Shown here piece after piece: positions 3,096 to 56,008 of a stretch of DNA of 64,000 nucleotides. Numbering within the stretch: position 1 is the first letter of the stretch; each line of letters opens with the position of its first letter. The DNA lies in contig NC_092393.1 in the NCBI RefSeq assembly GCF_030028105.1, positions 34,263,248 to 34,327,247 on the forward strand. Reading direction: 5' to 3'. The DNA comes from Mobula birostris. Lineage: Eukaryota. The position numbers and the translations under genes are program-made. The notes below the pieces were generated by a model. That model was not told the DNA's origin, made no database searches, and saw nothing but the letters and a program-made list of their open reading frames with translations.

Positions 3096-3606
3096 CATTC
3101 TTAGGGAAATAGCAGTTTCCAGAGTAGGTTGTATGGTCGGCACAACATTGTGGGCTGAAGGACCTGTAAGGTGCTGCAGATTTCCATGTTCACCCCACAG
3201 GTATTTTCAGGATTTTATAAAATAAAGTCAGCAGTACATGCTGAACAAATTTTTATTTCTGGTAGTTCTGAAAAGATAATGTGGAGTTTCTTGAAGCCAG
3301 TACCAAACCTACAGTTTTTTTGAGTGATTGCAGCGGGTTTCTTCTGTGAGATTTGTTTTCCTCTTTTTATTTTAGCTATGCTATCAAATAGACGCCGTAA
3401 TGAGGGAGGCAATGTTTTTATCAGGCGCGTCTCTCGAAACATTGAAATTCAATATTTCATTTTTCATGATAAGCATGTACTCCTCGAGTCTGGCTATAAT
3501 GCTTTTCATGTTGTGGCTGAACTCGTACTATGAGCTATTAAAGTATTGTGTTCTTTAAAAAGTTTTGTTGATGTTTACGTCATCGTAATCAACAATTTAG
3601 TAGAAA

Positions 3607-3733
3607 GATGAAGGGTTTCGGCCCGAAAAGTCGATACTATTCTTTTCCGTAGATGCTGCCTGGCCTGCTGAGTTCCTCTAGCATTTTGTGGGTGTTGCTT
3701 GGATTTTCAGCATCTGCAGATTTTCTCTTGTTT
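3607..3733 (+). mobile_element. Penelope-like terminal repeat fragment with decayed hammerhead motif
   Basis: GATGAAGGGTTTCGGCCCGAAAAGTCGA..AGATGCTGCCTGGCCTGCTGAGTTCCTCTAGCATTTTGTG; same repeat as at 22553 and 34808. Confidence 0.75.
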
Positions 3734-4553
3734 TCCACAACGTTACAAACGGTTTAAGTGTGGGGGGAGGGGCGCCCGGCGGCAACAGCCCTTTGTTGGG
3801 ACGAGAGGGAGGTTAATGTTAATCGGAAAGTATCCATTCAATTTTCATTGAGTTTATTTCCTTAATCCGTTATACAATGTTAGTTGGAAGTTTCATTTTT
3901 AGTGGATTGATGTTTTTATCTTGGTTCACTTTTGTTGATCCTTATGTCTTGAGTGTGGTTGCATGTTTTGTTCATTGAGTTTGATTGTGTGTAAGTGCTT
4001 TATGCATTTTTGATGGAGTAGCGTGCTTCCTGCCATTAGAAGCTCCTGTTAATCTATGCAAACTTTTTTTGTGAAGGTGATAAATTATTTTCTGTGATGT
4101 GTTTCAGTTCATATCCAAGTAATGCACAGACAATGAGGCCGGTGACTAAAAAATTTCAGTGGAAGTGGGGATCTTGTTGATCATGTGCAAAATAAACTTG
4201 TACTTTGTTAGAAGAAGATAATTAATTCTGTTTCGAATGTAACTGTGAATTGTATGTGTGGAGTTTGGATAAAACAAAGTTCATTCTAGTCAGCATCGAC
4301 TTGTTGGGCTGAAGGACTGTATTGTGCTGTATTGCTGTCTGACTCTATTGGTTATGCTGTGGATAGATGTTCTGCCAATACTTGGTTTTGCTTCATGTGC
4401 AGATAAATTATTCAGATGAACAAGTTCATGAAATGAGAGTTTACTTTCTGTAATAGGAAATTAGCAACAGCTTTGTGTATTCATCACTATTTAGTACTTG
4501 ATTTTCCTTCAGTTCTGTGTATTTTCATCACTTAAGATATCCTTTGTTTCTAG

Positions 4554-4836
4554 TCCTAGAAGACGCCGCCGATCTCGTACGAGATCCAGAAGTAAAAGCC
4601 GAAGTAGGTCAAGATCTCGTTACAGCAGGTCCAGATCGCGTTCATTTTCTCGATCTAGATCTCGTTCCAAGTCTAGATCTGTTAAAAGATCAAGGTCAAA
4701 GTCGAAGTCAAGATCAAGGTCCAGGTCACGATCTAGAAGTATATCACGGATGTCTCAAGGGTCAAAGTCAAAATCCAGATCCAAGACACCAATTAATTCA
4801 ACTTCTCCACAGAAAGATGGAATTGAATCTCCGTAA
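4554..4836 (+). CDS. SRSF2: SRSF2 coding exon 2, RS domain and stop (211 aa total)
   Basis: Acceptor TTTCTAG|T; frame joins exon 1 (353+283=636 nt); RS dipeptide repeats; TAA 4834-4836 followed by 3'-UTR intron donor(s). Confidence 0.96.
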
Positions 4837-5882
4837 AGTGGTAAATTGCACCAAAGTGAGTAAGTAGATTTAACTGATGCCATTATTTTACGATCTTTTA
4901 AGCTTTTTATTGAGTAACTTTGGGAAGAATGTAGAGCTATCATCAAGCACATGTAGGTGATTGGCATTGAACTATTGTGTAATAAATGGAGAATATTCTT
5001 GATAAAGTTTTTAACAGTTAGATGCAGTGGAACTTAAGTTATTAAGAAAGATTTTCCATCACTGATATAATTTGCATTCAAAACCATCATCTTTCACTGT
5101 GTCCTCTTCACTTGATAGCAGCTGGTCTTGTTAAACGGAACATCTATTCAGTATGGAAAATTATTAAATAATACTGCTGACTCAAGTACTTTTGTACTTG
5201 ATCACTTATTATTTAGTGACTTCACTTCTGATGGCAGCCTAGAGCAAAAATTGTCATTTTAGAAACTGGAGATACTGGCTGAGAAATTTGCAAGATGCCA
5301 AGACCATCTGAAATCTCCCAACATGATACTGATGGTTGCCCTTTCTTTCAAACTCCCTCTGAATTAATGGAAAAAGAAAAAGGATTTCCCCTGAGATCTT
5401 ACCATGAAGTAAACAATATCTAGAAGCAATTTTAACTTGCATCAACTGTGTTTGGTACTGTATGAGCTAAATGACCAAATAGATGAAATTATAGAACAGT
5501 CATGCTCCCAAGATGCTATCCCTTCTAATTTGGCTCTCACCTTAATTTATCTTTCACATTTGAGCAAAAGCAGCAGAAATAGAACATAGATATTTCTTTC
5601 ATGGAGGTAATGATGTAGATATTGAGAAAACGATGTGGGCCAGAAGTATTGTATCCAGTTATTTATTTATAATTTCTTCCAAGGTATACTTGCAAATGTC
5701 TTGTATCCATTTTATTAAAGAGTGCAACATGTTTAAAGCAGCCTCATTATTCAGTTACGTTTGGTTGCACAGTGATGCAATATATAGTACAACCAGTTTA
5801 AGATAACATTGCATGAATACATTGCTTTGTAGTGGGTTTAACCTTTAATTTTTCGAATCCTGTAAAGTTTCTGTAACAATAG

Positions 5883-5990
5883 CTGCAGAAGGGCTTTAGC
5901 CTTTGGAGGGTTCGTGAGCCCTGTTGCAGTCCAGTTCTGCTCCCAAAATGATTGTTGCGAAGAGCCTTGCTGTCTGAAGTTTAATGGTAG
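5883..5990 (+). other. SRSF2: Candidate SRSF2 3'-UTR alternative (poison) cassette exon, 108 nt
   Basis: AG|CTGC...GGTAG|GTAACA; GC-richer island in an AT-rich intron; position and size resemble the known ~100-nt SC35 cassette exon; polypyrimidine tract weak. Confidence 0.4.
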
Positions 5991-8360
5991 GTAACAGCTG
6001 CTGATAAATATGATTCAGAAAAGAATTCAAAGAGGAAAAGCGTCACAATATTTGCATTGGAAAGCTATTGAACTGAAGTTAAAACAGTATTAATGTTTCA
6101 GCTTAAGAGTAGTTGTTAGAATGTGAACTAGACCTCTGTTACCACTGGATCTCTTCTAATTTAATTTAAACAAAAAAGTCATTAAAGTCATACACTTAAT
6201 GTGCAACATTCATATGAAACAATCATAAATGAATGCTAATATAATGGATGACTTTGCTGAAACATTTGTAGAATAAAATTGTTTTGTGCTCATGATTTCA
6301 CCTATATCTTATTTACCCACTCATTGCTCTGGGCAACTTAGGAACTTTCTACAGTTCAGAGTTTTATGCACCCTGTTAAATTAATCATAATGGTAGAAAT
6401 ACACACCAAATAATAAAAGGTGGTAATGAGGTAAGATCCATTGAGAATATCACTATGCATCATTGAATTCACCTTGATTTACTGTATCTTAACTGGTGTT
6501 TTGCCCCTTTCCCTCTTGCATACCTGTGTCCAGATAGATAAAAGGAAGTACATAATTTGATACTTCTACCTAAGTCTTGAAAACTGTCAACTTTTTGAAA
6601 TGGGCAAAATATCAAAAGATATATATTGCACATTGAGAGTTGTTTCAGACAACTGATGAATCAGCAATCTTAGGATTGCCAGAGGAATTAAATTGATGTC
6701 AAATATCAGATTGGACATGATCTTGAGTGAGAGAACGTACAGGAGTGATAATGTGGTTTATACTTATTTTTGGGAATAATTACTACTGGTGGGGGGGGGA
6801 GACATTGATTTTTGGGACACTGAGCTGGCTGAAGTGATTTGTGACTCTGGTTTTGGTAATTCAGTTTTCAAAAACGCTTCTATTTCATGCTGTTCCAGTT
6901 ATGTAGCACCATGTTCACACTGACAGTTGGGTGACAGAGTCTGAAGCTTCAGACATTGAACAATACAGCACAGGAACAGGCCCTTAAGTTGTGCTGAACT
7001 AATTGAGTGAATCAAATGAATTAAACTAATCCCTTCTGTCTACATGATGTCTATACCTTCATTTCCACCTTGTTAATTTCTTTCCTGACAGACTGCAGCC
7101 TCTGTTTACCCATTGCTCTCCTTATGCCTGATTTTTCTTACATTGACTGTGGTTTCTATTTCACATTTTAAAAACTTAAATTAATCCAGCAGTGAGTATC
7201 TTCAAACTATGACACACACACGATACCAACACTACTCTGAAAGCAGATTGCTTTTGCTTAGCAGTTTAGTGGTTCTATACTTAGGACTTCATGAAATGCT
7301 GTAGCGTACTTGTTCTACATTCTCAACAGTAATTTGCATATTTTAATTTTATCCTTGGCCACTAAACCATAAAGATGATAATCCAATATCTAATCTTTAG
7401 TTAGAGTATATTTATCAATTCCTGTTAGATTCCTCTTTGGAAGTAAAGCTATGGTGAATTTTTGCTGTTACACAGGATTTTAAAAAGTTTCATGTTTTTA
7501 AAGGAAACTTGCAGTTAAGCAAATAGTATACAGGAAGTAGATAACTATCAGATGCTATGGAAACTGAAGTTGCTTTTTGCAGCAGCCTTAAATTTTGTAC
7601 TTGTTTGCAAAACTAGTTTTAGTAAGATGTTAGAATTAACTGCATTTTTCATTTTCACAGCATTCAAAATCCCTTTGGCATACTAATAAAACTTGTTGCC
7701 CTACTCCCTTACCAACTAATGTTTCTCAATTGAATTCAAAACTACCAAAGTACATGGCATAAAATCTTTGGTCCCTGATGTTTAACATTTTAATTTTGTA
7801 ATATTAGTCAAGTCAACAGGGTCAGCAATTTGCTACGTATTTCTAGTTGTCACGAGTATGTGGTTGTGGACTGCTTTCGACAACTGCAGTCTTTGTTTTG
7901 ATACTCCAGTGATGCTAGATCTGGGTTTTGATCAACTGTTAATGAAGTAGCAGTGATTTATGTTCCAAATCAGGAATCTGGTGAGGCTGGGGGATCTTGG
8001 AGGTGATGTTTCAGTGATTTTTGCTGTTATTCTGCGGGGTGGTCGAGGTCATATGGCCGTTGGTACAGTTGAGGTAAGCTTGGTGAGTTGTACTACATAT
8101 TGTAGCTTATTTGCACTGCTGGGGCAGTATGCTGGTTGTGGAAGGATGAACATAGAGTGCAATGACAGGTAATGATGAGCTTTGGCAGATGTACCTGCAT
8201 GGTCCAATGGTGAGTATTATGTCAAATTGTTGGTACATTCAAGTCTTGAATTGATCATATAATGTTATGGTAGTTATTGGTAAATGAAATTATTCTAGTT
8301 AGCATTGAAATAAGCACTATTTAAATAATGACTGCCACCTGAGATTTTCTTGCTCTAAAG

Positions 8361-8440
8361 TTGGAGTTCCCAACCTTTTTTATGCCATGGACCCCTGCCA
8401 TTAACTGAGGGATCTGTGGACCCCAGGTTGGTAACCCCTG
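8361..8440. mobile_element. 80-bp hAT-type MITE
   Basis: TIRs GGAGTTCCCAACC / GGTTGGTAACCCCTG; 8-bp TSD CTCTAAAG (8353-8360) / CTCCAAAG (8441-8448). Confidence 0.75.
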
Positions 8441-9167
8441 CTCCAAAGTAACTGGGAATCTCAATTTAAATAGACTTTTGAATTGAGTTTGGTTAAAAGC
8501 AATGATGTGATTGAGGATTTCCAAGATAATGCCTTAAACTTGGGTTTTTTGACATTTTACATTAAAATATGCTAAATGAACCATTCGTTTGAAGTATTGC
8601 AGAAATACAGCAAATATTGAAGGTGCTATTCAAATTTCAGACTATATTTGATACACTTAAGCATCAAGAGTAATATGCAGCACTTTCAATGAGAGAACAT
8701 TAACCTGACACATCTCATTTTAAACATTTCCTTAAATTGAAAATGTAATTCCCAAGAATTTTTTGGAAAATTGTCTTTAAGTTGCATTATTTTTGGAAAT
8801 AGAATTTTTAGTAGAATTTGATTCACATAAACAAATGCTGTTTTAATGTGTCTGCCATTAAGCTTCCGCAAAAAGTGTGATTTTTGGTACTGTTTACGTT
8901 TTTACCTGTTCTGGGGTACCCATATACAATGTGCAGTAAAAATTGTCAGTTCATAATTGTCAAATTTTCTGTTAGTATTTTTGTTGTTCTTGTACTATGT
9001 AACCTTAAAGTAGAAGGCACCCCACCTTAATTCCAGTTTAATAAATAGTTTTCTTGAAATTGTATTAAAATTATTGAGGTGAGGAGGAAAAATAGGCCTT
9101 TGTCAGTTGTATAACTGTGTTATTTTATAGCTTTATGAGTTTACATTTTAACTTCTCTTTATTCTAG

Positions 9168-14902: not shown

Positions 14903-17900
14903 CATAAGATGTAGGAACAGAAGTAGGCCATTCAGCCCATCGAGTCTGCTGCACCATTCAATCATGGGCTGATCCAATTCTTCCAGATGCCCTGGCTAAT
15001 CAAGAACCTATCTATCTCTGCCTTAAATGCACCCAATGACTTGGCTTCCACAGCCACTTGTGGCAACAAATTCCATAGATTTACCATCCTCTGACTAATT
15101 TACCCACATCTATGTTCTAAATGGATGTCCTTCAATTCTGAAGTTGTGCCCTCTTGTTCTAGACTCCTTGACCATGGGAGATAACTTTACCATATCTAAT
15201 CTGTTCAGGCCTTTTACCATTCGGAATGTTTCTATGAGATTCTCCCCTCATTCTCCTGAACTCCAGGGAATACAGACCAAGAGCTGCCAGATGTTCCTTG
15301 TATGGTAACCCTTTCATTCCTGGAATCATTCTCTTGAATCTTCTGTGAACCCTATCCAATGTTGGTATATCCTTTCTCGAATAAGGAGCCCAAAACTGCA
15401 CACAATACTCCAAGTGTGGTCTCACGAGTGCCTTATACACCCTCAACATCACATCCCTGCTCTTGTATTCTATGCCTTTATAGTCATTGTCATACTTTAT
15501 TGATCCCGGGGGAAATTGGTTACAGCTGCACCATAAATAATTAAATGGTAATATGTAAATTATGCCAGGAAATAAGTCCAGGACCAGCCTATTGGCTCAG
15601 GGTGTCTGACCCTCCAGGGGAGGAGTTGTAAAGTTTGATGGCCACAGGCAGGAATGACTTCCTATGACGCTCTGTGTTGTATCTTGGTGGAATGAGTGAA
15701 ATGAATGGCAACATTGCATTTGCTGCCTTCGCCACTGACTCAACCTGAAGGTTAACCTTTATGGTATCCGGCACAAGGACTCCAAAGTGCCTTTGCACCT
15801 CTGCATTTTGAATTCTCTCCCCAACTAAATAATAGTCTGCCCGTTCATTTCTTCCACCAAAGTGCATGACCATACACTTTTCAACATTGTATTTCATTTG
15901 CCACTTCTTTGCCCATTCCCCTAAACTAACTACAAGTCTCACTGCAGGCTTTCTGTTACCTCAACACTACCCGCTCCTCCACCTAACTTTGTATCATCGG
16001 TAAATTTAGCCATTAATCCCATAGTCTTAATCATTGACATACATCATAAAAAGCAGTGGTTCCAACACCAACCCCTGTGGAGCTCCACTGGTAACCAACA
16101 GCCAGCCAAGATAGGATTTCTTTATTCCCACTATCTGTTTTCAGCCGATCAGCCAATGCTCCCCCTATGCTAGTAACTTTCCTGTAATTCCATGGGCTTT
16201 TATCTTGCTAAGCAGCCTCATGTGTGGCATCTTATCAAAGGCCTTCTGAAAATCTAAGTTCACCACATCTACTGCACATCCTTTGTCTATCCTGCTTGTA
16301 ATTTCCACAAAAAATTGCGGTAGGTTAGTTAGGCAGGATTTTCCTTTCAGGAAACCACGCTGGCTTTGGCCTGTCTTGTCATGTGCTTCCAGGTATTCCA
16401 TAATCTCATCTCTAACAATAGATTCCAACAACTTCCCAACCACTGATGTCAGGCTAACAAGTCTATAATTTTCTTTCTGCTGCCTCCCACCCTTCTTAAA
16501 TAGCGGAGTAACATTTGCAATTTTCCAGTCATCCGGTACAATGCCAGAATCTGTGGATTCTTGAAGGATCATTGTTAATGCCTCTGCAATCTCTCCAGCT
16601 ACTTCCTTCAGAATCAGAGGGTGCATTCCATCAGATCCAGGAGATTTATTCTCCCTTAGACCATTAAGCTTCCTGAGCTCCTCCTCATTCGTAATTTTCA
16701 CTGCACATACCTCACTTCTTTGACACTCTTGAATGTCCAGTATGCTGAAGATGTCTTCCACTGAAGACTGATGCAAAATGCTCATTCAGTTCCTCTGCCA
16801 TGTGAGCATCTCTCATTACAACATCTCCAGCGTCAATTTCTATTGGTCCTATATCTACCCTCAACTACCTTTTACCCTTTATATACCTAAGCTTTTAGTA
16901 TCTATTTGATATTAGTCACCACTTTCCTTTCATAATTCACCTTTTCCTTCCTAATGACCTTTTTTTAGTCTCCTTCTGCAAGTTTTTAAAAGCTTCTCAA
17001 TCCTCTATCTTCTCACTGGCTTTGGCTTCCTTGTATGCCCTCTCTTTTGCTTTTAGTTTGGCTCTGACTTCACTTGTCAGCCACAGTAGTGTCCTTCCAT
17101 TCAAAAATTTCTTATTTGGAATGTATCTGTCTTGCACTTCCCTCATTTTTGCAGAAACTCCAGCCATTGCTGCTCTGCTGTCCTTCCTGCTAGTACCCCT
17201 TTCCAGTCAACCATGGCTAGTTCCCCTCTCAATGGAATTTAGTTTCTCCTTCTCAAATTTCAAAGTGAACTCGAACATATTATAACTGTTCCCTAAGGTT
17301 TCCTTAACCTTAAGCTCTCTTATCACCTCCAGATCATTGCACAACACCCAATCCAGCACAGCCAATCCCCTAGTGGGGCTCAACAAGAAGCTGTTCTAAA
17401 AAGCCATCCCTTAAACATTCTACAAATTCTCTCGAAGTTCAGTACTGGCCAGGTTTTCCCAATCCACCTTCATGTTAAAGTCCCTGATTACCATGACATT
17501 GCCCTTCTGACACACCTTTCTATCTCCTGCTATAATTTGTAATCCCCATCCCAGCTGCTTTTCGGAGGCCATTAGGGTCCTTTTACCCTTACCATTTCGT
17601 AACTCAACTCAGAGACTCCACCTTCCAATCCTATGTCATCCCTAATGATTTAATATTATTTCTTGTACACAGGGCCATACCACCCCCTCTGCCTACTAAC
17701 CTATCTTTCCGATACACTGTATATCCTTGGACATTCAACTCCCAATGACAGCCATCCTTTAGCCAAGTTTCAGAGATGGCCACAATGTTATACTTGCCAA
17801 TCTGTAGCTGAATTTCAAGATCGTCCATTTTATTTCTTATACTGCATGCATTCAAACACACTTTCAGTCCAGTATTTGTTGCCACTGGCTGTGATTATGC

Positions 17901-18410
17901 CTCATCTCCTGCCTGTCCTTTCTATCATCTCTGTTGCACTCTATCTTTGATTTATTTCTATTTTCCCCTTCCTCAGCCCTATCTATCACTCTGGTTCCCA
18001 TCCCCCTGCCAAATTAGTTTAAACCGTCCCTAACAGCTCTATTAAACCTGCCTGCTAGGATATTGGACCCCTTTGGTTTCAGGTGTAATCTGTCCTTTTT
18101 GTACGGGTTGTACCTCCCCCAGAACATGCCCCAATGATCCAGGAACCCGAAGCCCTGCCCCCTATACCAGTCTCTCAGCCACGCATTAATATGCCTGATC
18201 ATGTTATTCTTGCATTTGTTAGCCCAGGCAGCAATCGTGAGATTACTACCCTGCAGATCCTGCTTTTTAGCTTCCTACCCAACTCCCTGAATTCTCTCTT
18301 CAGGACCTCCTCCCTTTTTCTGCCCATGTCATTGGTACCGACGTGCACCAAGACTTCTGGCTGTTCACCCTCTCCCTTCAGAATACTGTGCACCCGATCC
18401 AAGACATCCT
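14903..18410 (-). mobile_element. CR1 LINE with ORF1 esterase part, endonuclease and RT, degenerate
   Basis: VHVGTND (ORF1), LNACSIRNK/ISETWL (endonuclease), DFQKAFDK, RPHLEYCVQFW. Confidence 0.93.
15481..15696 (-). mobile_element. Rex1/Babar-like LINE 3' fragment inserted in CR1
   Basis: PPRYNTERHRKSFLPVAIKLYNS*, AATAAA and short tandem tail; CR1 sequence is contiguous across the insert. Confidence 0.75.
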
Positions 18411-21553: not shown

Positions 21554-22552
21554 AAGGGTAATTAGCGACCTTGTTGGAGGGTATTAAACTGGAGCAAGGC
21601 AAAGTATGACAGCATTAAGCAGGATCCAGGGAGAGTTAATGGGAACAGTTTTTGAGTAAGCCCACATCAGATATATGGAGAGTATTTAAAGACCAACTTA
21701 TTACAGAACAGGTATGTTCCAGTCACAAAGCAGAACTAGGATGACAAAATAAGAGAACCTTGGATGTTGAGAGTTGTAAATAGTAAAGGAAAAGTATGTA
21801 AAGCCTCAGGAGCTAGAATCAAACGGAGCTCTTGAAGTTTATGAAGAAGCCAGAAAGAACTCAAAGGTAAAGCCTGGAAGGTCCATGAAAAGTCCTTGAG
21901 AAGTAGGTTAAAAGAGAATCTCAAGACATTCTATACAAGAGAATAACTGGTGAGGGGGTAGGACCATTCAAGGCGAGGGGAACATTTGTTTGGATGCGGA
22001 GGCCCTTGATGAGTACATCAATGTTTACCAAGGAGAAGGACGTGGAGGATAGGAAAATCAGCGCTGACAATATTAATTTTAGAACATTTTTAGTTAAAGA
22101 GCATTAAGGTGGTTCAGTACCTGTTCCTGTCCTGGACTGTTTTATGTTCAAATGCTGCTAAGTTAGCTGTTTCCCTGCAACAGGCTCTACCAGCTGTAAT
22201 GGAAGCACTAATTGGAGAAGTGTTATGAAGAATAGATTTCTGAAAGCATCTGGGCCTTAAGCATGGAAATTAAAAACTTGAAGCTCAAGCTATATACTCT
22301 CCTCCCTTATGCCCACCTGCAAAATATAACAAACTAATTTTGGTACCACAAAATCAGGATATTCTTCCTGATTAGAGGTGACCTTTAGTTAAATAAATGA
22401 CAAGACACTGAGCATCATTCCAGTTTACTTTTTAACTACTCAGCATATTACATGCATGAGGGCAATCTTGTCTCATAAGATTATGCAGGGAATTAATTAG
22501 TTTTCTATTAACAGTAACTTCACAAATCCATCTAAATAACTGAAATATATGC

Positions 22553-23645
22553 ATGAGAAAATCTGCAGATGCTGGAAATCCAAAGCACCACACACTAAAT
22601 GCTAGAGGAATTCAGCAGGCCAGGCAGCATCTATGGACAAGAGTAAGCAGCTGACATTTTGAGCCAAGATTCTTCAGGACTGGAAAAAAGATGAAGTCAG
22701 AGTAAGCAGCTTTGTGGGGAGCAAGAAGTACTAAGTGGTAGGTGACAGGTGAAACTGAGGGGGGGGGGCAGGTGAAGTAAATAGCTGAGAAGTTGATTGG
22801 TGAAAGAGATAAAGGGCTGGAGGAGGGAGAATCTGATAAGAGGGTAGAAGACCATGGATAAAAGGGAAGATGGAGGGGTACCAGAGAGAGGTCATGGGCA
22901 GGTAAGAGGTGAGAGAGGGGAAAAAGAAATGGAGAATGGTGAAGGGGAGGGCTCCATTACTGGAAGCTCAAGAAATTGATGTTCATGCCATCAGGTTGGA
23001 GGCTACCCAGGTAGAATACAAGGTGTTGCACCTCCAAGCTGAGTGTGGCCTCATTGTGGCAGTAGAGAAGGCCATGGTCCAACATGTCAAAATGAGAATG
23101 TGAAGTAGAATTGAGTTGGGTGGCCACCAGTAGATCCGACTTTTTTAGGCAGATGGAGTATAGCTGCTCGGCAAAGCAGTTTCTCAATCTACGTTGGATC
23201 TTACTGATATACAGGAGGCCACAATGGGAGCAACTGATACAGTAGATGACCCCCAGCAGGCTCACAGGTGAAGTGCTGCCTCACCTGGACGGACTGTTTG
23301 GGACCCTGAATGCTCGTTGGTGGGGGGGAGGTATGGCACTTGTTCAACTTGCGAGGATAAATGGCAGGAGGGAGATCAGTGGGGAGAGACAAATGGAGAA
23401 GTGGGTAGTGTAGGGAGCGATCCCTGTGTAAATTGTTTGGGGGGGGGCGTTGGGAAGAGATGTGCTTGGTGGTGATTGAATTCCATTCGAGATGGCGGAA
23501 ATTACAGAGAATTATGTGCTGGGCATGGAGACTGGTGGCGTGGTAGATGAGGATAAGAGCCCTATTGCTGGTGTGGCGGCAGGAGGATGGGTGAGGGCAG
23601 ATATGCATGAAATGGAAGAGATGTGGATGAGGACAGCATTGATGG
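22553..23645 (-). mobile_element. Penelope-like retroelement 3' part (GIY-YIG endonuclease and terminal repeat)
   Basis: GVIYCISCSHCGLLYISKIQRRLRNCFAEQL = degenerate GIY-YIG with CxxC; terminal repeat as at 3607 and 34808. Confidence 0.85.
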
Positions 23646-23649
23646 TTGG

Positions 23650-34571: not shown

Positions 34572-34676
34572 CTCTAATATGGTCTTTCCTTTGACCTCGC
34601 TTTTGTTAAACCACACGTATTGCGCCAGAACCACTGAACATGGCCATATGTACAAGCCATATTGAGGATCGAGTAC
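34572..34676 (-). CDS. METTL23: METTL23 coding exon 2 (105 nt)
   Basis: AG/GT bounded; VLDPQYGLYIWPCSVVLAQYVWFNKSEVKGKTILE (human MYVWPCAVVLAQYLW). Confidence 0.95.
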
Positions 34677-34872
34677 CTGAAGATACAAATCATCACATTT
34701 ATATCACACCTTTAAGGAGACAATATACAAAGACAACTTACAGGTGCATTGATCAGCCAAATTTGACAACCCAGAGGAACGGATTAAAACAAGCAACTAC
34801 TTTGTTAAAACAACACACATCAAAGTTGCTGGTGAATGCAGCAGGCCAGGCAGCATCTCTAGGAAGAGGTAC

Positions 34873-34908
34873 AGTCGACGTTTCAGGCCGAGACCCTTCG
34901 TCAGGACT
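34873..34908 (-). ncRNA. Minimal type I hammerhead ribozyme motif, intact core
   Basis: Minus strand AGUC-CUGACGA-AGG GUCUCGG CCU-GAAA-C-GUC^GACU: stem I AGUC/GACU, stem II AGG/CCU, palindromic ACGU stem III, GUC triplet. Confidence 0.8.
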
Positions 34909-35589
34909 AACTGAAGGAAGAGTTAGTAAGAAATTTGAAAGTGGGAGGGGGAGGGGGAGATCTGAAATGGTAGGAGAAGACAGAGGGAGGGATGGAGCCT
35001 TCTGTCCCATGATCCTCTCATATCCCCTTTGCCAATCACCTGTCCAGCTCTTGGCTCCATCCCTCCAAAATGCTGAAGGAAACTCAGCAAGTCAGGCAGC
35101 ACCTTTGGAAAAAAAATCAATGTTTCAGGCTGAGGCCCTTCATCAAGACTGGAAAGAAAAAGGAAAAAAGCCAGAATAAGAAGGTGGGAGGAGAGGAAGG
35201 TGATAGGTGAAACCAGGAGAATGGGGGAGTGGGGATGAAGTGAGAAGTTGTAAGGCAATAGATGGAAAAGATAAAGGGCTGAAGAACTCTGATAAGAGAG
35301 CGCAGAATGGATTATAAGGAAGGAGGAGGGACACCAGGGGATGCTGTTAGGAAAGAGATGAGAGCAAAGGGGTAAGAGTGGGGAATGGAAGAAGATGGAA
35401 CAGGGAGGATGAAAAATTATCACAAGATAGAGAAATCGATGTTGATGTCATCATGTTGGAGGCTACCCAGTCGGAATATGAAGTGTTGCTCCACCAAACT
35501 ACGAGTGGCCTCATCGCATCAGTAGAGGTGGCCATGGAGTGACACTTTGGAATGGAAATGGGGATTGGAATTAAAATGGCTGGCCACTG

Positions 35590-36265
35590 GGGAATTCTGC
35601 TTGCTGTAGGTGGAGTGAAGAATCTCCCTGCAGCATCTCGTGACCCTGTGATCTCTGTCTTGGAAGCCATTAGAACATTTTTCAAGAGGGCGAACTCTCG
35701 CAAGGCATCAGGACCTCATGATGTAACTGGTAGGGTACTAAAAACCTATGTCAATCAATTGGTGGGAGTGTTCAAGGACATCTTCAATTTTTCACTGCTG
35801 CCTTTGGAGATTCTCACCTGCTTCAAAAGGGTGACTATCCTACCAATGTCCAAGTAGAGCAGGGTGAGCTGCCTTAAAGTCTATTGCCCAGTAGCACTCC
35901 ATCCACCGTGAAGAGGTGCTTTGAGACTACGGTCATGGCTAGAATCAACTCCTGCCTAAGCAAGGTTCATCATCTGGTATGAAGGACCCACTGCACAGGA
36001 TGGGCAAAAACTGCTAGGTTGTAAACTCAGCCAGCTCCATCATGGGCACTAGACTCCCTAGCATCCAGACCACCACCTAAAGTTGATGCCTCAGAAAGGC
36101 AGCATCCATCATTAAGGAACCCCATCACCCAGGGCACACCCTCTTCTCATTGTTACCATCAAGGAAGAGCCTGAAGACACACACACATTTCAGGAATAAC
36201 TTCTTCCCCTTTGCCATCAAATTTCTGAATGAACAATGAACCCATGAATACCACCTCAGTATTTT
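35590..36265 (+). mobile_element. Internally deleted Rex1/Babar fragment
   Basis: RKASGPHDVTGRVLK..VFKDIFNFSL..CFKRVTILP joined to the 3'-end region. Confidence 0.75.
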
Positions 36266-37137
36266 ATCTACATCAGGTTTCATCAATGCAGAGGAAGCTG
36301 CAAAAGGAGCAGTGGATACAGTAGACGATCCCAAAATTTTTCAGGTGTAGCAGTGCCTCACCTGGAAGGACTGTTTGGGGCTCTTAATGGAGGTGAGGGA
36401 GGTAGTGAACGGGCAGGTGTAGCACTTCTTCTGTTTGCAGGGTTAAATGGTAGGAGAGAGTATAGTGGAGTGACAAATAGAAAAGCGAATCGTGGAAGGA
36501 GTGGTCCCTGTGGAATACAGAGAGTAGGGATGAGGTAAAGTTGTGCTTGGTGGTCAGATCCCATTGAAGATAACATTAAGTTTTGGAGAAAGATGTGCTG
36601 GATGTGGAAGCTCCTTCGGTGGTGGGTATGGACAAGAAGTCTATCCCTATTAAGGCAGGGGGAAGATGGAGTAAGGGCAGGTGTCTGGGAAATGGAGAAG
36701 ATGCAGGTAAGGAATAATGGAGGAAGGGAAACTGCATTCTTTAAAGGAGGATATCTCTGATGATCTGGAAAGGAAAGCCTCGTCGTAGAAAAGGGAATGG
36801 CAGTTTTACAGGTGACAGGATGGGAAGTATAATCAAGATAGCTGTGAAAGCTGGTAAATTTATAAAAGATATTGGTAGACAGTTTGTCCCCAGAGACGGA
36901 GACGGAAACTGAGAAAGGGTAGAGAGGCATCAGAATGGATCAAATCCTAAGTTCTAGATCTCATGCTAGCTGAAGGTACGATTTTCAATCTTGGAACGAA
37001 ACAAAAAGGCAGGCACTGGTCATTGAGATGTGGTCAGGGCAAAATTTGGAGTTTATAAAGAATTGGGAAAAAATGGAGGAGGATAGGGAAAGAATGTCAC
37101 TGTGGGTATGGATATGGCAAGGGAAAACGTGCAAAAG

Positions 37138-37540
37138 GGATTCAAATTTATTTATCACATGCATGTTGGAACAAACAGTGAAATGCACTGTTTGTGTTAA
37201 CAACCAACACATTTATGGATGTGCTGGGGCCACCTGCAAGTGTCACCATAGCATGTTCACGATGCTCAGCAAAAAAAACAGCAGCAACAAAACATCACAA
37301 CAGCAAAATAATCCCCTTTCTCATCTTCCTAATTACCCACCCACTCTTGAACACAGAGAGACCTCTAACCCCAGGAAAGGCTGCCACTGTGCGTCCTCTC
37401 TTGGCCCTAGACTCCCAAGACACTGTACCTCCAACCTCCAGCCCCTGGCCCAGACTCTCAGACTTCTGATTACCCCAGGACTCATTGATCCTTCGAACCT
37501 CAGGCCTCATCCCCAGTACTTGCTGATCACAGGAATTTGA
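37138..37540 (-). mobile_element. Non-coding interspersed repeat (non-autonomous retroelement-like)
   Basis: Head TTTATTTATCACATGC..AACAGTGAAATG resembles 50810-50850; minus strand ends AATAAATTTGAA. Confidence 0.45.
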
Positions 37541-37726
37541 CTGGTTCATTCTTACTGCACTCATCTAAAATTTTCTTTCTCCTTCATTTAACTTTAGTGT
37601 TACAGTCACATTTGTTCATCAACAATGTATAGATTTGAGAGATTCGACAAGATTCATTCCAAAAACAGATTTGACAGAAATAGTAAACAACAGGAATTCT
37701 GCAGATGCTGGAGATTCAAGCAACAC

Positions 37727-37874
37727 ACATCAAAGTTGCTGGTGAACTCAGCAGGCCAGGCAGCATCTCTAGGAAGAGGTACAGTCCTGACGATGGGTCT
37801 CGGCCTGAAACATCGACTGTACCTCTTCCTAGAGATGCTGCCTGGCCTGCTGCGTTCACCAGCAACTTTGATGT
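37727..37874. repeat. 60-bp inverted repeat (59/60 matched) with a 28-nt loop holding a hammerhead core; Penelope terminal-repeat derived
   Basis: Arms 37727-37786 and 37815-37874; loop CTGACGATGGGTCTCGGCCTGAAACATC. Confidence 0.93.
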
Positions 37875-38437
37875 TGTCAGAAATAGGATTAGGTCTGTAT
37901 CTTAAAATCACAGGAATAAGAAGTGTGAGAGGAAGGGTAGGAAAGAAAATGAGTCAGATATAAGAGCAAGATTTAGGTCTTTTGGCCCATCGAGTCTGTT
38001 CCTATATCCCAGGGTGACAGTGACTGAAGGGAGTGAGGAACGGAAGCAGGGTGCAAGGAGCCTGTCAAAAATCAGTGGTGAGCAAGATAAGAGGTGCGCA
38101 TGGTTGGCAATAGAGGGCAGGTGTATGTAGAGAGGTGGGACATTGTTGGAGGGAAGCTCTGATGCAGGGGAAGGGTAGGGGAGCTTGTATATGGGTAAGA
38201 AGGTGAGAGGTCAGCTTTGATTTACACGTGTGCGTGAACGGAGGGAAGAGCCAGGTATGCATGTGAAGGGAGTGTCTGCTGTGGGAGCGTAAATGAGGTA
38301 GGCTCTGCTGTGGCAGCGTGGATGGAGAGGAGCTCAGGTATGTGTGTGTGTGTGTAAAGGATAGAGTTGCTCTGCTATTCGTGGAACACATACAAAATGC
38401 TGCGGAACTCAGGAGGCAGCTATGGAGGGAAATAAAC

Positions 38438-38472
38438 AGTCGACGTTTCGAGCCGAAGCCTTCATCAGAACC
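38438..38472 (-). ncRNA. Minimal type I hammerhead ribozyme motif, core intact
   Basis: Minus strand GGUU-CUGAUGA-A GGC UUCG GCU C-GAAA-C-GUC^GACU; within terminal-repeat fragment ~38385-38472. Confidence 0.7.
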
Positions 38473-38572
38473 GTCTGCCTCTCTGCCGAGGGAAGGAGCC
38501 AGTCAGCACATGTTGGCTGCTGCACTGACGGTAACTTCACCTCATGCCGAGGCTCCGACTGGTTCAGGCCAG

Positions 38573-38720
38573 TTTCAAAGATACATTTAATGTCCGAGAA
38601 ATGTACACAATATACCTCCTGAAATGTTTTTTTTCTTCGCAACCATCCACGGAAACAGAGGAGTGCCCCAAAGAATGAACGGCAGTTAAATATTAGAACA
38701 CCAAAGTCACCCCCCCAACC
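38573..38720 (-). mobile_element. 3' fragment of the non-autonomous element at 55222-56008
   Basis: TTTAATGTCCGAGAAATGTACACAATATA..CATCCACGGAAACAGAGGAGTGCCCCAAAGAAT nearly matches 55234-55340. Confidence 0.8.
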
Positions 38721-38814
38721 CACCACCACCCCTCATTGGGGCGCAGTCTCCAATGCGGGAGAAAAAAAGAGCAGGAGCTCTGCCATTAACGTTCAATTCA
38801 GGATGTTAGCCCAC

Positions 38815-38910
38815 CTCGGGAATGTGAACCTCCAGTGACTCGGGACCATCGACCAATGGCCCTAACACAAACGAAAACTGCTTCACACTGACGGAGCCCC
38901 GACCGCTCAT
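38815..38910 (-). CDS. METTL23: METTL23 coding exon 1 (96 nt); full protein 232 aa
   Basis: ATG 38910 with in-frame upstream TGA (38931-38929); MSGRGSVSVKQFSFVLGPLVDGPESLEVHIPE; donor GAG|GTGGGC, phase 0 joins exon 2; exons total 699 nt. Confidence 0.85.
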
Positions 38911-39209
38911 GACATCATTACCTTTAACTCAGGCCGTCCGGAGGCGGGGCGCACCCGTGTCGTCATTAGAATGACAAGCGGCGTTAACCAATTAGGTAGC
39001 TATGCCCACAATGGGTCCAATCGACACTGGGGTGTAGGCGGGACTCCGTTCATGTTGGCGTGATGGACAGGCCGATGTGGCCAGTGTACGGCAGGGGTAT
39101 GAAAATTCTGGAAGGCCTATAAGTGCGAGGATCCACGGCTGGAGGACCTGCTTTTGGAGATTGGCGGCTGGCGGGAAAAGAGGGTTCCGGCCTTTTGAAA
39201 GAGTAGGAA
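38911..39209. promoter_or_regulatory. METTL23/JMJD6 bidirectional CpG-rich promoter (299 bp between start codons)
   Basis: GC box GAGGCGGGGC 38941-38950; CCAAT at ~38988, ~39017 and reversed at 39160; E2F-like GCGGGAAA 39171-39178. Confidence 0.75.
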
Positions 39210-39338
39210 ATGAATCACAAAGCTAAAAAGCGAATAAAAGAAGCAAAGCGCAGTGCCCGCCCCGAGTTGAGAGACTCTTACGACTGGACAAAACACAACT
39301 ACCACGAAACTTTCTCTCTGTCCTTAAGCACTGTCAAG
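39210..39338 (+). CDS. JMJD6: JMJD6 exon 1 (129 nt)
   Basis: [43 protein letters not shown]; donor AAG|GTAAGG. Confidence 0.96.
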
Positions 39339-40194
39339 GTAAGGAGCGGCCAGGCCGCCTTAGGCTGGCCCTATATCCCTGACTCCCCACACCGAGCAAC
39401 AACACACGGCCCAGCACGTCCTGCACGTACACACGAGCACACCGTCCGAAGCACCAGTAGTAGTGGCGGCGCCAGAGAGCCGAGTCGGTGTGGGATCTGC
39501 AGGCGGACTTTTTTTTACGGGAGTTGGGTGCCTGGCCGAAAAGCTCGGCATGGTTTGTCTCGTCCACCACGGATGGGCAAGGAGGCTGCTAAACCCCAGC
39601 TGACGGCAGCCGGCTTGACCCAGCCAATCGTCCGGATATTGCCCTCGGCTATGGAACAAGCTGTGGAGGAGGGGTTGGGGTACGGAGCGCCGTTTCTATA
39701 ATAAAAAAAATCGGGGTTCTCTGTTGCTTTTAGGAAGGGGAAGGGGTCAATCCTGTGGTAACGAAGTAATTTGAAGAAGGGGCCACTATTTTTTGGAACC
39801 ATAATGAATTTGGGGTTAATGGACACGTGTCTTGTTGCGGAGATACATGTGTTATTTGGAGGGGAATTTCGGTGGCGAGGGGTGGACAGGGTTGCAGTGG
39901 ATAGTTAATTTCTACTTGAAAATGAACAATTAGTTTTGCATCACGTTTCACTATTTCCAAAATTGTTTACATGATAACGTGTAGTAGTAGCCTCCGAATC
40001 AAGATCAATTATTTTATGAATTTAATTCCACTATCATTAGGGGGTCCAGAAGAGATTGGGCTCCAAATCAAAATACCAGTTTACTCTGACAAGAAGTGCT
40101 GGGTATAAAGCTTTTTAAGTGTAGCTCAATTTTTGTTTCTTATTTTAATCCATCTACTAGATAAAAACCTCTGTCATTTTATACCAGTGATGTT

Positions 40195-55221: not shown

Positions 55222-56008
55222 TCAAAGGCCAAGTTTAATGTCAGAGAAATGTATACAATATATATCCTGAAATGCCTTTGCTACGCAAAACATCCACGAA
55301 AACAGAGAAGTGCCCCAAAGAATAAACGACAGTTAAATGTGAGAACCCCGAAGTCCCCCCCCAACTCCCCCCTCCTGCGCATTAGCGAGCAGCGATCCCC
55401 CTCTCCTTCCCCAGCAAAAATAAACACGCATCAGTGCAATCTCCGAGCCTTAGTGTGTGCTAAGCAATAGCAAAGACACACTAAAATTACCCCAAAAACT
55501 TCACACTTCATTTGGAATTAGACAATCCACAGGTTCTCTCTCTCCCTGGCAAGGGAGAGTGAGGTGCCCCCCATTTTCACAGCGAGCAGGAGACATAACA
55601 ACAACACACTGGTTTATGATCTTAAAAGTTTGTTTCATCGGTTTTTTCAAACTCTGTGTTCAAAGATCACAAAGACCTTGGGTCTTCTGGCCCACAGTGA
55701 AAGATTTTCCAGCTTCCCCGACGACACGAGTCTCCAGCCGTGACAGCGACCCTCGATCCACCCGCCTCCAGGGCCCCAAGATCTTAGGTTTCCGAACATG
55801 ATCGAGATTCTCAGGCCAAGCTCTTGGCATGTCAAATAGTGGCCAGTCATGGAAACCTGAGAACGGGTCCCATTCCCGCAAAGAACCAAAGCCTGCGTGT
55901 AACTCCAGGTCAGGGTCTTCAAAAGAACCCCGAAAGGAAAAAATAAAGATATTAAAGGTAGAAATAGAGCTGTTTCTGAAGATGAAAGCATTAGGCACCA
56001 TCATCCCT
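55222..56008 (-). mobile_element. Non-coding non-autonomous retroelement
   Basis: Minus strand starts GGATGATGGTGCC and ends TGACATTAAAC; second partial copy at 38573. Confidence 0.65.

Follow-up and report, generated by a model that had tools for sequence, protein, structure and literature searches.

Five METTL23-like exons were located on the minus strand of the window (the whole 64,000-nt stretch of DNA that was analysed), in a gene which we take to be METTL23 after the human protein. The first two exons, the intron between them and the sequences related to Penelope-like elements (PLEs) within it, including the hammerhead copies A to D, are listed below in the direction of transcription.

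38815..38910, minus strand: METTL23-like coding exon 1 (32 codons), from spliced contigs
34677..38814, minus strand: intron 1, 4138 nt, GT-AG, from a contig joint 34674-38813 skipping 4138 nt
38434..38475, minus strand: copy A, a minimal type I hammerhead in which the core is intact and stem II is damaged; cut predicted between 38442 and 38441
37685..37874, without strand assignment: copy D, a young PLE stub folded back head-to-head and flanked by a duplication of 12 of 13 nt
35059..36943, minus strand: old 5'-truncated PLE remnant (RT C-terminus, Cys linker, GIY-YIG, pLTR), from nhmmer and tblastn
35640..36265, plus strand: unrelated repeat splitting the old PLE remnant, from sequence comparison
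35108..35156, minus strand: copy C, a decayed hammerhead that belongs to the pLTR of the old remnant in the intron, from sequence comparison
34805..35066, minus strand: young 5'-truncated PLE insertion with copy B, 89-93% identity to the pLTRs of elements L045-L047
34870..34911, minus strand: copy B, minimal hammerhead whose core and stem II have the commonest young family form, predicted cut between 34877 and 34876
34572..34676, minus strand: METTL23-like exon 2, from spliced contigs

The runs behind the contigs are presumed to be RNA, probably selected RNA, and were represented by small shares in 8 runs. The splice joint of intron 1 (CT..AC on the plus strand) was present in contigs of 4/4 runs (X1, X2, X4 and X5), and the spliced contigs carried 0 differences in organism A and few in organism B. 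A METTL23 contig in X2 reaches at least 39100. The first exon of a head-to-head neighbour gene lies at 39210-39340 of the window on the plus strand, and a CpG island at 38500-40000 is common to both genes. The peptide of this exon resembles JMJD6.

Reading of the sequence confirmed the two minus-strand motifs with intact cores that the initial annotation had described. In copy A, CUGAUGA (38468-38462) is followed by an extra A (38461), stem II (38460-38450), GAAA (38449-38446), a loopless ACGU (38446-38443) and C17 at 38442. Copy B reads CUGACGA from 34904, with the extra A at 34897, stem II at 34896-34885, ACGU at 34881-34878 and C17 at 34877. The proposed cuts at 38442 and 34877 and the piece of 3565 nt that they would release (38441..34877) were correctly placed; the predicted cut in A lies 373 nt from the intron 1 donor and that in B 200 nt from the exon 2 acceptor. 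A short stem II had been ascribed to both motifs; in B it carries the family-majority G10.1.U11.1, and in A it is damaged. The pairs in B are G.U/G-C/G-C/U.G, so that G10.1.U11.1 replaces G-C. This G.U was considered as a sign of decay and rejected, as it is the majority form and is also found in the long elements L045 and L047. The stem II region of A, 11 nt in length, allows G-C, G.U, a bulge and C-G, or an alternative slipped register that puts A.C beside the core; G10.1-C11.1 is possible as a G-C pair only via the bulged 3-pair stem.

Assignment of the motifs to the minimal, dimer-dependent type I hammerheads of PLEs was borne out by their core features and by their location in pLTR sequence. 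The parent element encodes RT and GIY-YIG domains and carries the motif in its pLTR (L045, L047). L045 is a partial tandem, made up of a pLTR, a frame of 913 aa and a second pLTR; each pLTR contains the motif, and the two motifs are separated by 3516 nt. In the 824-aa frame of L047, RVT_1 (E 9.4e-5) and GIY-YIG (E 1e-3) were matched, both below the Pfam cut-offs, and between them lies a CX4CxxC linker which fits the CX2-5CxxC of Neptune/Nematis. A search with the RT piece returned 94,639 first-look candidates, and the 150 that were scored had 92-100% identity. In the genome of 4.01 Gb, exact matches to a tight 28-nt pattern numbered 40,006, and a looser intact-core pattern had 73,034 matches versus 60 for the reversed control; taken as a family, the motif is far in excess of chance. 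G10.1.U11.1 was present in 30,872 of the 40,006 tight-pattern copies (77%) and in both L045 pLTRs; the most successful subfamily spread with this pair at a position for which the literature gives a highly conserved G-C. At the loci sampled, truncated elements carried the motif at their 3' end, and an inverted piece often stood in front. Behind the young tandem element, at a distance of 300 nt, follows an older pLTR copy in inverted orientation (L045:4919-5149), so that nesting of PLE ends is common. None of the 8 matches that an Rfam scan of the window gave with E values up to 10 was a hammerhead; the Rfam models miss loopless forms, and this result is not evidence against the motif.

Intron 1 contains four separate PLE insertions, namely A, D, the old remnant with C, and B. 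Copy A is part of an old end stub of ~95 nt (~38375-38471) which starts at the motif front and matches the full element in the pLTR only; its 39 best other genomic matches have 77-88% identity. The insertion with copy B is 260 nt long, begins with ~69 nt in inverted orientation (35066-34998), continues as a forward pLTR end (34999-34805), lies directly behind copy C and has 89-97% identity to its best relatives. Judged by sequence, the two differ in age, A appearing as an old stub and B as a young, separate insertion. The old remnant is in two pieces, 36943-36266 and 35639-35059, which match L045 with nhmmer E values of 1.6e-68 and 3.9e-45 and with 32-62% in tblastn. The translation of the repeat that splits it is presumably a broken LINE-like RT piece. 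The decayed third copy noticed earlier was recovered at ~35110-35150 as copy C, in which C3 and C17 have become U and the palindrome is broken, leaving it without the core pattern CUGANGA...GAAA...UH.

Copy D, which was absent from the initial annotation, is located between A and B. Its arm at 37783-37874 is antisense to B in the pre-mRNA, with 96.7% complementarity over 92 nt. The hammerhead that D itself carries (37787-37810) lies on the plus strand and reads ACAU where A and B have ACGU. The fold-back is predicted to form a hairpin of -128.5 kcal/mol in the pre-mRNA and is a candidate for double-stranded RNA editing; a weak Rfam match to mir-1288 (E 0.84) falls on it, and similar fold-backs are present in loci L003, L005 and L006. 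Two further old PLE remnants with decayed hammerheads were found elsewhere in the window, at 22540-23648 (minus strand) and 3606-3736 (plus strand). The repeat at 38586-38719 has a second copy at 55234-55365 (84%), and its summed contig depth in X1 is ~15,000-18,000.

The spacing between the cut sites of A and B, 3565 nt, is near the 3516 nt that naturally separate the hammerheads of the tandem element, so their geometry is that of the parent element. The candidate explanation that A and B are the two pLTRs of one decayed element was nevertheless rejected. Between A and the start of the remnant at 36943, blastn, tblastn and nhmmer found no homology to the PLE ORF except the tail of D; A and B are therefore not the ends of one element, despite their spacing. 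A tandem PLE has near-identical pLTRs flanking one ORF, whereas A and B are unlike (83.8% similarity over just 37 nt) and the remnant's own pLTR carries C. Self-comparison of the intron found no tandem unit, and the parallel drawn previously with retrozymes fails, A and B not being units of a tandem repeat.

Same-strand copies occur once per 110 kb, which gives a 3.2% chance that the next one lies within 3565 nt, and with 73,034 copies in the genome close same-strand pairs are expected by chance in large numbers (~2,330 within 3565 nt). Among the first 100 listed matches, same-strand gaps that short were observed in 3/98 cases versus 3.1 expected, and 6 intact cores were counted in the 264 kb surrounding the locus. 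The pairing of A and B in one intron is ordinary, at chance level.

An old copy that keeps its core could be read as domesticated, that is, as an intronic ribozyme regulating METTL23 in the manner of the conserved intronic hammerheads of amniotes. The core of A has 0/17 changes compared with 12/70 elsewhere (one-sided Fisher p 0.06), for a copy that was picked for its intact core, and the core is also kept in 3/7 of its nearest relatives, themselves retrieved by likeness to A. With such ascertainment a p of 0.06 does not establish selection on the core. Copy A is situated on the margin of the promoter CpG island (CpG observed/expected 0.52-0.86 versus 0.29 for the window), and its 4 CpGs would for this reason be spared without selection. 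The decay of stem II also speaks against domestication, as do the amniote examples, which are described as canonical and conserved in the part of PMC6155905 that was available. Domestication is accordingly regarded as extremely improbable.

A loopless stem III cannot close within one molecule, and activity thus needs two copies: monomers of this kind would be unable to fold alone, and cutting would require a partner. In a dimer of A and B, the catalytic strand of A, with its weak stem II, would cut the site of B, and that of B would cut the site of A. It is possible to draw this double hammerhead, its stems I having 6 and 5 pairs with wobbles included and its ACGU stem III 4 pairs, and it evaluates to -9.1 or -13.2 kcal/mol versus -20.8 kcal/mol for two inactive monomers. 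Folding energy was considered as an argument against the heterodimer and dismissed on the basis of a B:B control (-12.7 versus -23.2 kcal/mol for monomers); as A:B is no worse than this control, folding energy does not reject the heterodimer.

Cofolding of the D hairpin with B gave -204.6 kcal/mol versus -150.1 kcal/mol apart (~54 kcal/mol gained), and that of D with A just -145.5 versus -143.5 kcal/mol. In the minimum-energy fold of 3711 nt, 52 of the 53 listed positions of B were paired, 51 of them with D, and A was not in hammerhead form. These models predict that B is bound up by D and that A is left with no partner, and antisense capture of this kind would remove both cuts in cis. The hairpin of D would close first, ~3 kb ahead of the synthesis of B, and would have to be invaded by B, so that capture may be slow; the loop through which B would enter is partly open (unpaired probabilities 0.24-1.0).

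The model first proposed for the locus was that A and B dimerise in cis, that both sites are cut, and that the released 3565-nt RNA is circularised, here taken to be by RtcB. In its favour, standard or wobble pairs suffice to draw the dimer, the cuts are spaced much as in the natural unit, and RtcB circularises retrozyme monomers in vitro, as stated in the available text of PMC7229834. However, the pair is one expected by chance and is not a tandem unit, B is predicted to be bound to D, the published rates are low (PMC4209133, PMC6765202, both available in part), and the exon 2 acceptor follows 200 nt after B. The drawable geometry of the proposed dimer stands; its standing as a meaningful or likely active pair is not supported, the insertions being independent and B being predicted to be sequestered. 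Double cutting in cis is judged highly unlikely.

The efficient cleavage as dimers that had been attributed to the class is at odds with the published activities. Rates of dimer cleavage obtained by Lunse et al. may be higher than a review's summary implies. That review gives very low rates for minimal hammerheads even as dimers (PMC6765202), and in the consulted portion of PMC4209133 cleavage was absent for monomers from PLEs and low for dimers. For the anole PLE hammerhead, the accessible text of Frangieh et al. 2024 (PMC11167929) reports cleavage only in the presence of the PLE protein and no RNA-seq reads ending at the site. Splicing takes place within 5-10 min of synthesis and still proceeds when a hammerhead in the intron cuts slowly (work of Dye 2006 and Fong 2009 as given in PMC2995048), so a slow cut need not sever the mRNA. 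Whatever chemistry remains at the locus would be slow, dependent on a helper and in competition with splicing over minutes.

Assembled contigs cannot display RNA ends or circles, so low-level cutting is neither supported nor excluded by them, and intron parts without cover carry no weight. A 239-nt contig with 0 differences spans 38376-38614 uncut over the site of A, at a depth of 5 and in X1 alone of 7 distinct runs. The 38441/34877 circle junction was absent among the 15 joints listed (194 more were mostly from other family copies), contigs being in any case unable to show circles. A loose contig end behind 38449 departs from B after 3 letters and was assigned to another locus. A contig of 405-467 nt from another locus (depth 320-1005; X1, X2 and X8) carries 34 nt of A-type stub from GAAA, matched at 38416-38449 of the window, and represents an abundant transcript with half the motif. 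Splicing of intron 1 is compatible with cutting of some transcripts or of the excised lariat.

Cutting of a few transcripts at one site, through a PLE protein or dimers formed in trans, would hardly alter METTL23 mRNA, since a slow cut within an intron is tolerated by splicing. Long open PLE frames (824-913 aa) are present in the genome, the family sequence is very abundant in contigs, the models leave A unblocked by D, and the anole hammerhead cuts once its protein is added (PMC11167929, in part). Stem II of A is damaged, though, and the excerpts of the anole study had no RNA-seq reads ending at the cut site. Cutting at one site is considered unlikely.

The reading preferred here is that A and B are independent truncated PLE end copies which entered the same intron at different times and are likely uncut while the intron is spliced normally, and it is held with fairly good confidence. 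Chance pairing, the predicted block by D and normal splicing together indicate that the motifs are likely inert. Against inertness stand the facts that B is the family wild type, that the core of A is unchanged and that the spacing is like that of the parent unit. The boldest extension, in which unrelated PLE stubs act as accidental double hammerheads and release a circularisable 3565-nt intron RNA under the control of D and the PLE protein, is very improbable. If it were true, ~2,300 such pairs would yield intronic circles independently of splicing and would strike host pre-mRNAs in a transposon-dependent way, and double cutting with circles, if shown, would mean that circles made by ribozymes occur in host introns as well as in retrozymes. 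As found, the locus means little: it adds two copies to a motif already described, in a chance arrangement, within a repeat-rich fish genome. With its near-natural spacing, built-in antisense blocker and expressed host gene, it could serve to test if host pre-mRNA is ever cleaved by dispersed PLE minimal hammerheads.

The literature search found no paper joining METTL23 and a ribozyme, and nothing on the present motifs among papers that combine hammerhead, Penelope and shark; one chondrichthyan family is reported in a retrozyme preprint (bioRxiv 10.64898/2026.07.22.740005), whose supplements may list it. The following comparisons refer to the accessible portions of the papers cited. With the minimal hammerheads in PLE pLTRs reported in Cervera and de la Pena 2014 (PMC4209133) the motifs share the type I topology, the loopless palindromic stem III at 15.2-16.2, with ACGU in A as in B, the short stem I, the pLTR location and the extra base between 9 and 10.1, a feature of minimal hammerheads that is supplied here by A38461 and A34897. 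Those hammerheads are also mostly dispersed as single copies that derive from truncated elements, with occasional pairs ~3 kb apart or on opposite strands. The present motifs differ from them in the majority G10.1.U11.1, in a stem II of 3-4 pairs compared with 7-8 in Schistosoma, in the fact that A and B do not flank one element, and in copy number (73,034 compared with 4,000-9,000 for coelacanth and Xenopus, counted with a different descriptor).

The parent element shares RT, Cys linker and GIY-YIG with the EN+ Neptune/Nematis PLEs (Craig et al. 2021, PMC8557442), of which it is a candidate member, and has in common with EN+ PLEs the partial tandems forming pLTRs, the 5' truncation and the inverted 5' copies. 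Both it and Poseidon of Anolis (PMC11167929) have a hammerhead where pLTR and ORF join, with a tail behind it at insertion ends; Poseidon belongs to another clade, and the activity data are those of Poseidon. Non-LTR retrozymes (PMC7229834; bioRxiv 10.64898/2026.07.22.740005) resemble the locus in being type I and PLE-related and in that the RNA between two ribozymes can circularise, but they are tandem units of 51-972 nt, whereas here 3565 nt of unrelated intron lie between unlike copies. The intronic hammerheads of amniotes (RECK, CTCL, DTNB; PMC6155905) are likewise intronic, on the sense strand and of retroelement origin; they are few, canonical and conserved, while the motifs in the METTL23-like intron are minimal and stand among tens of thousands.
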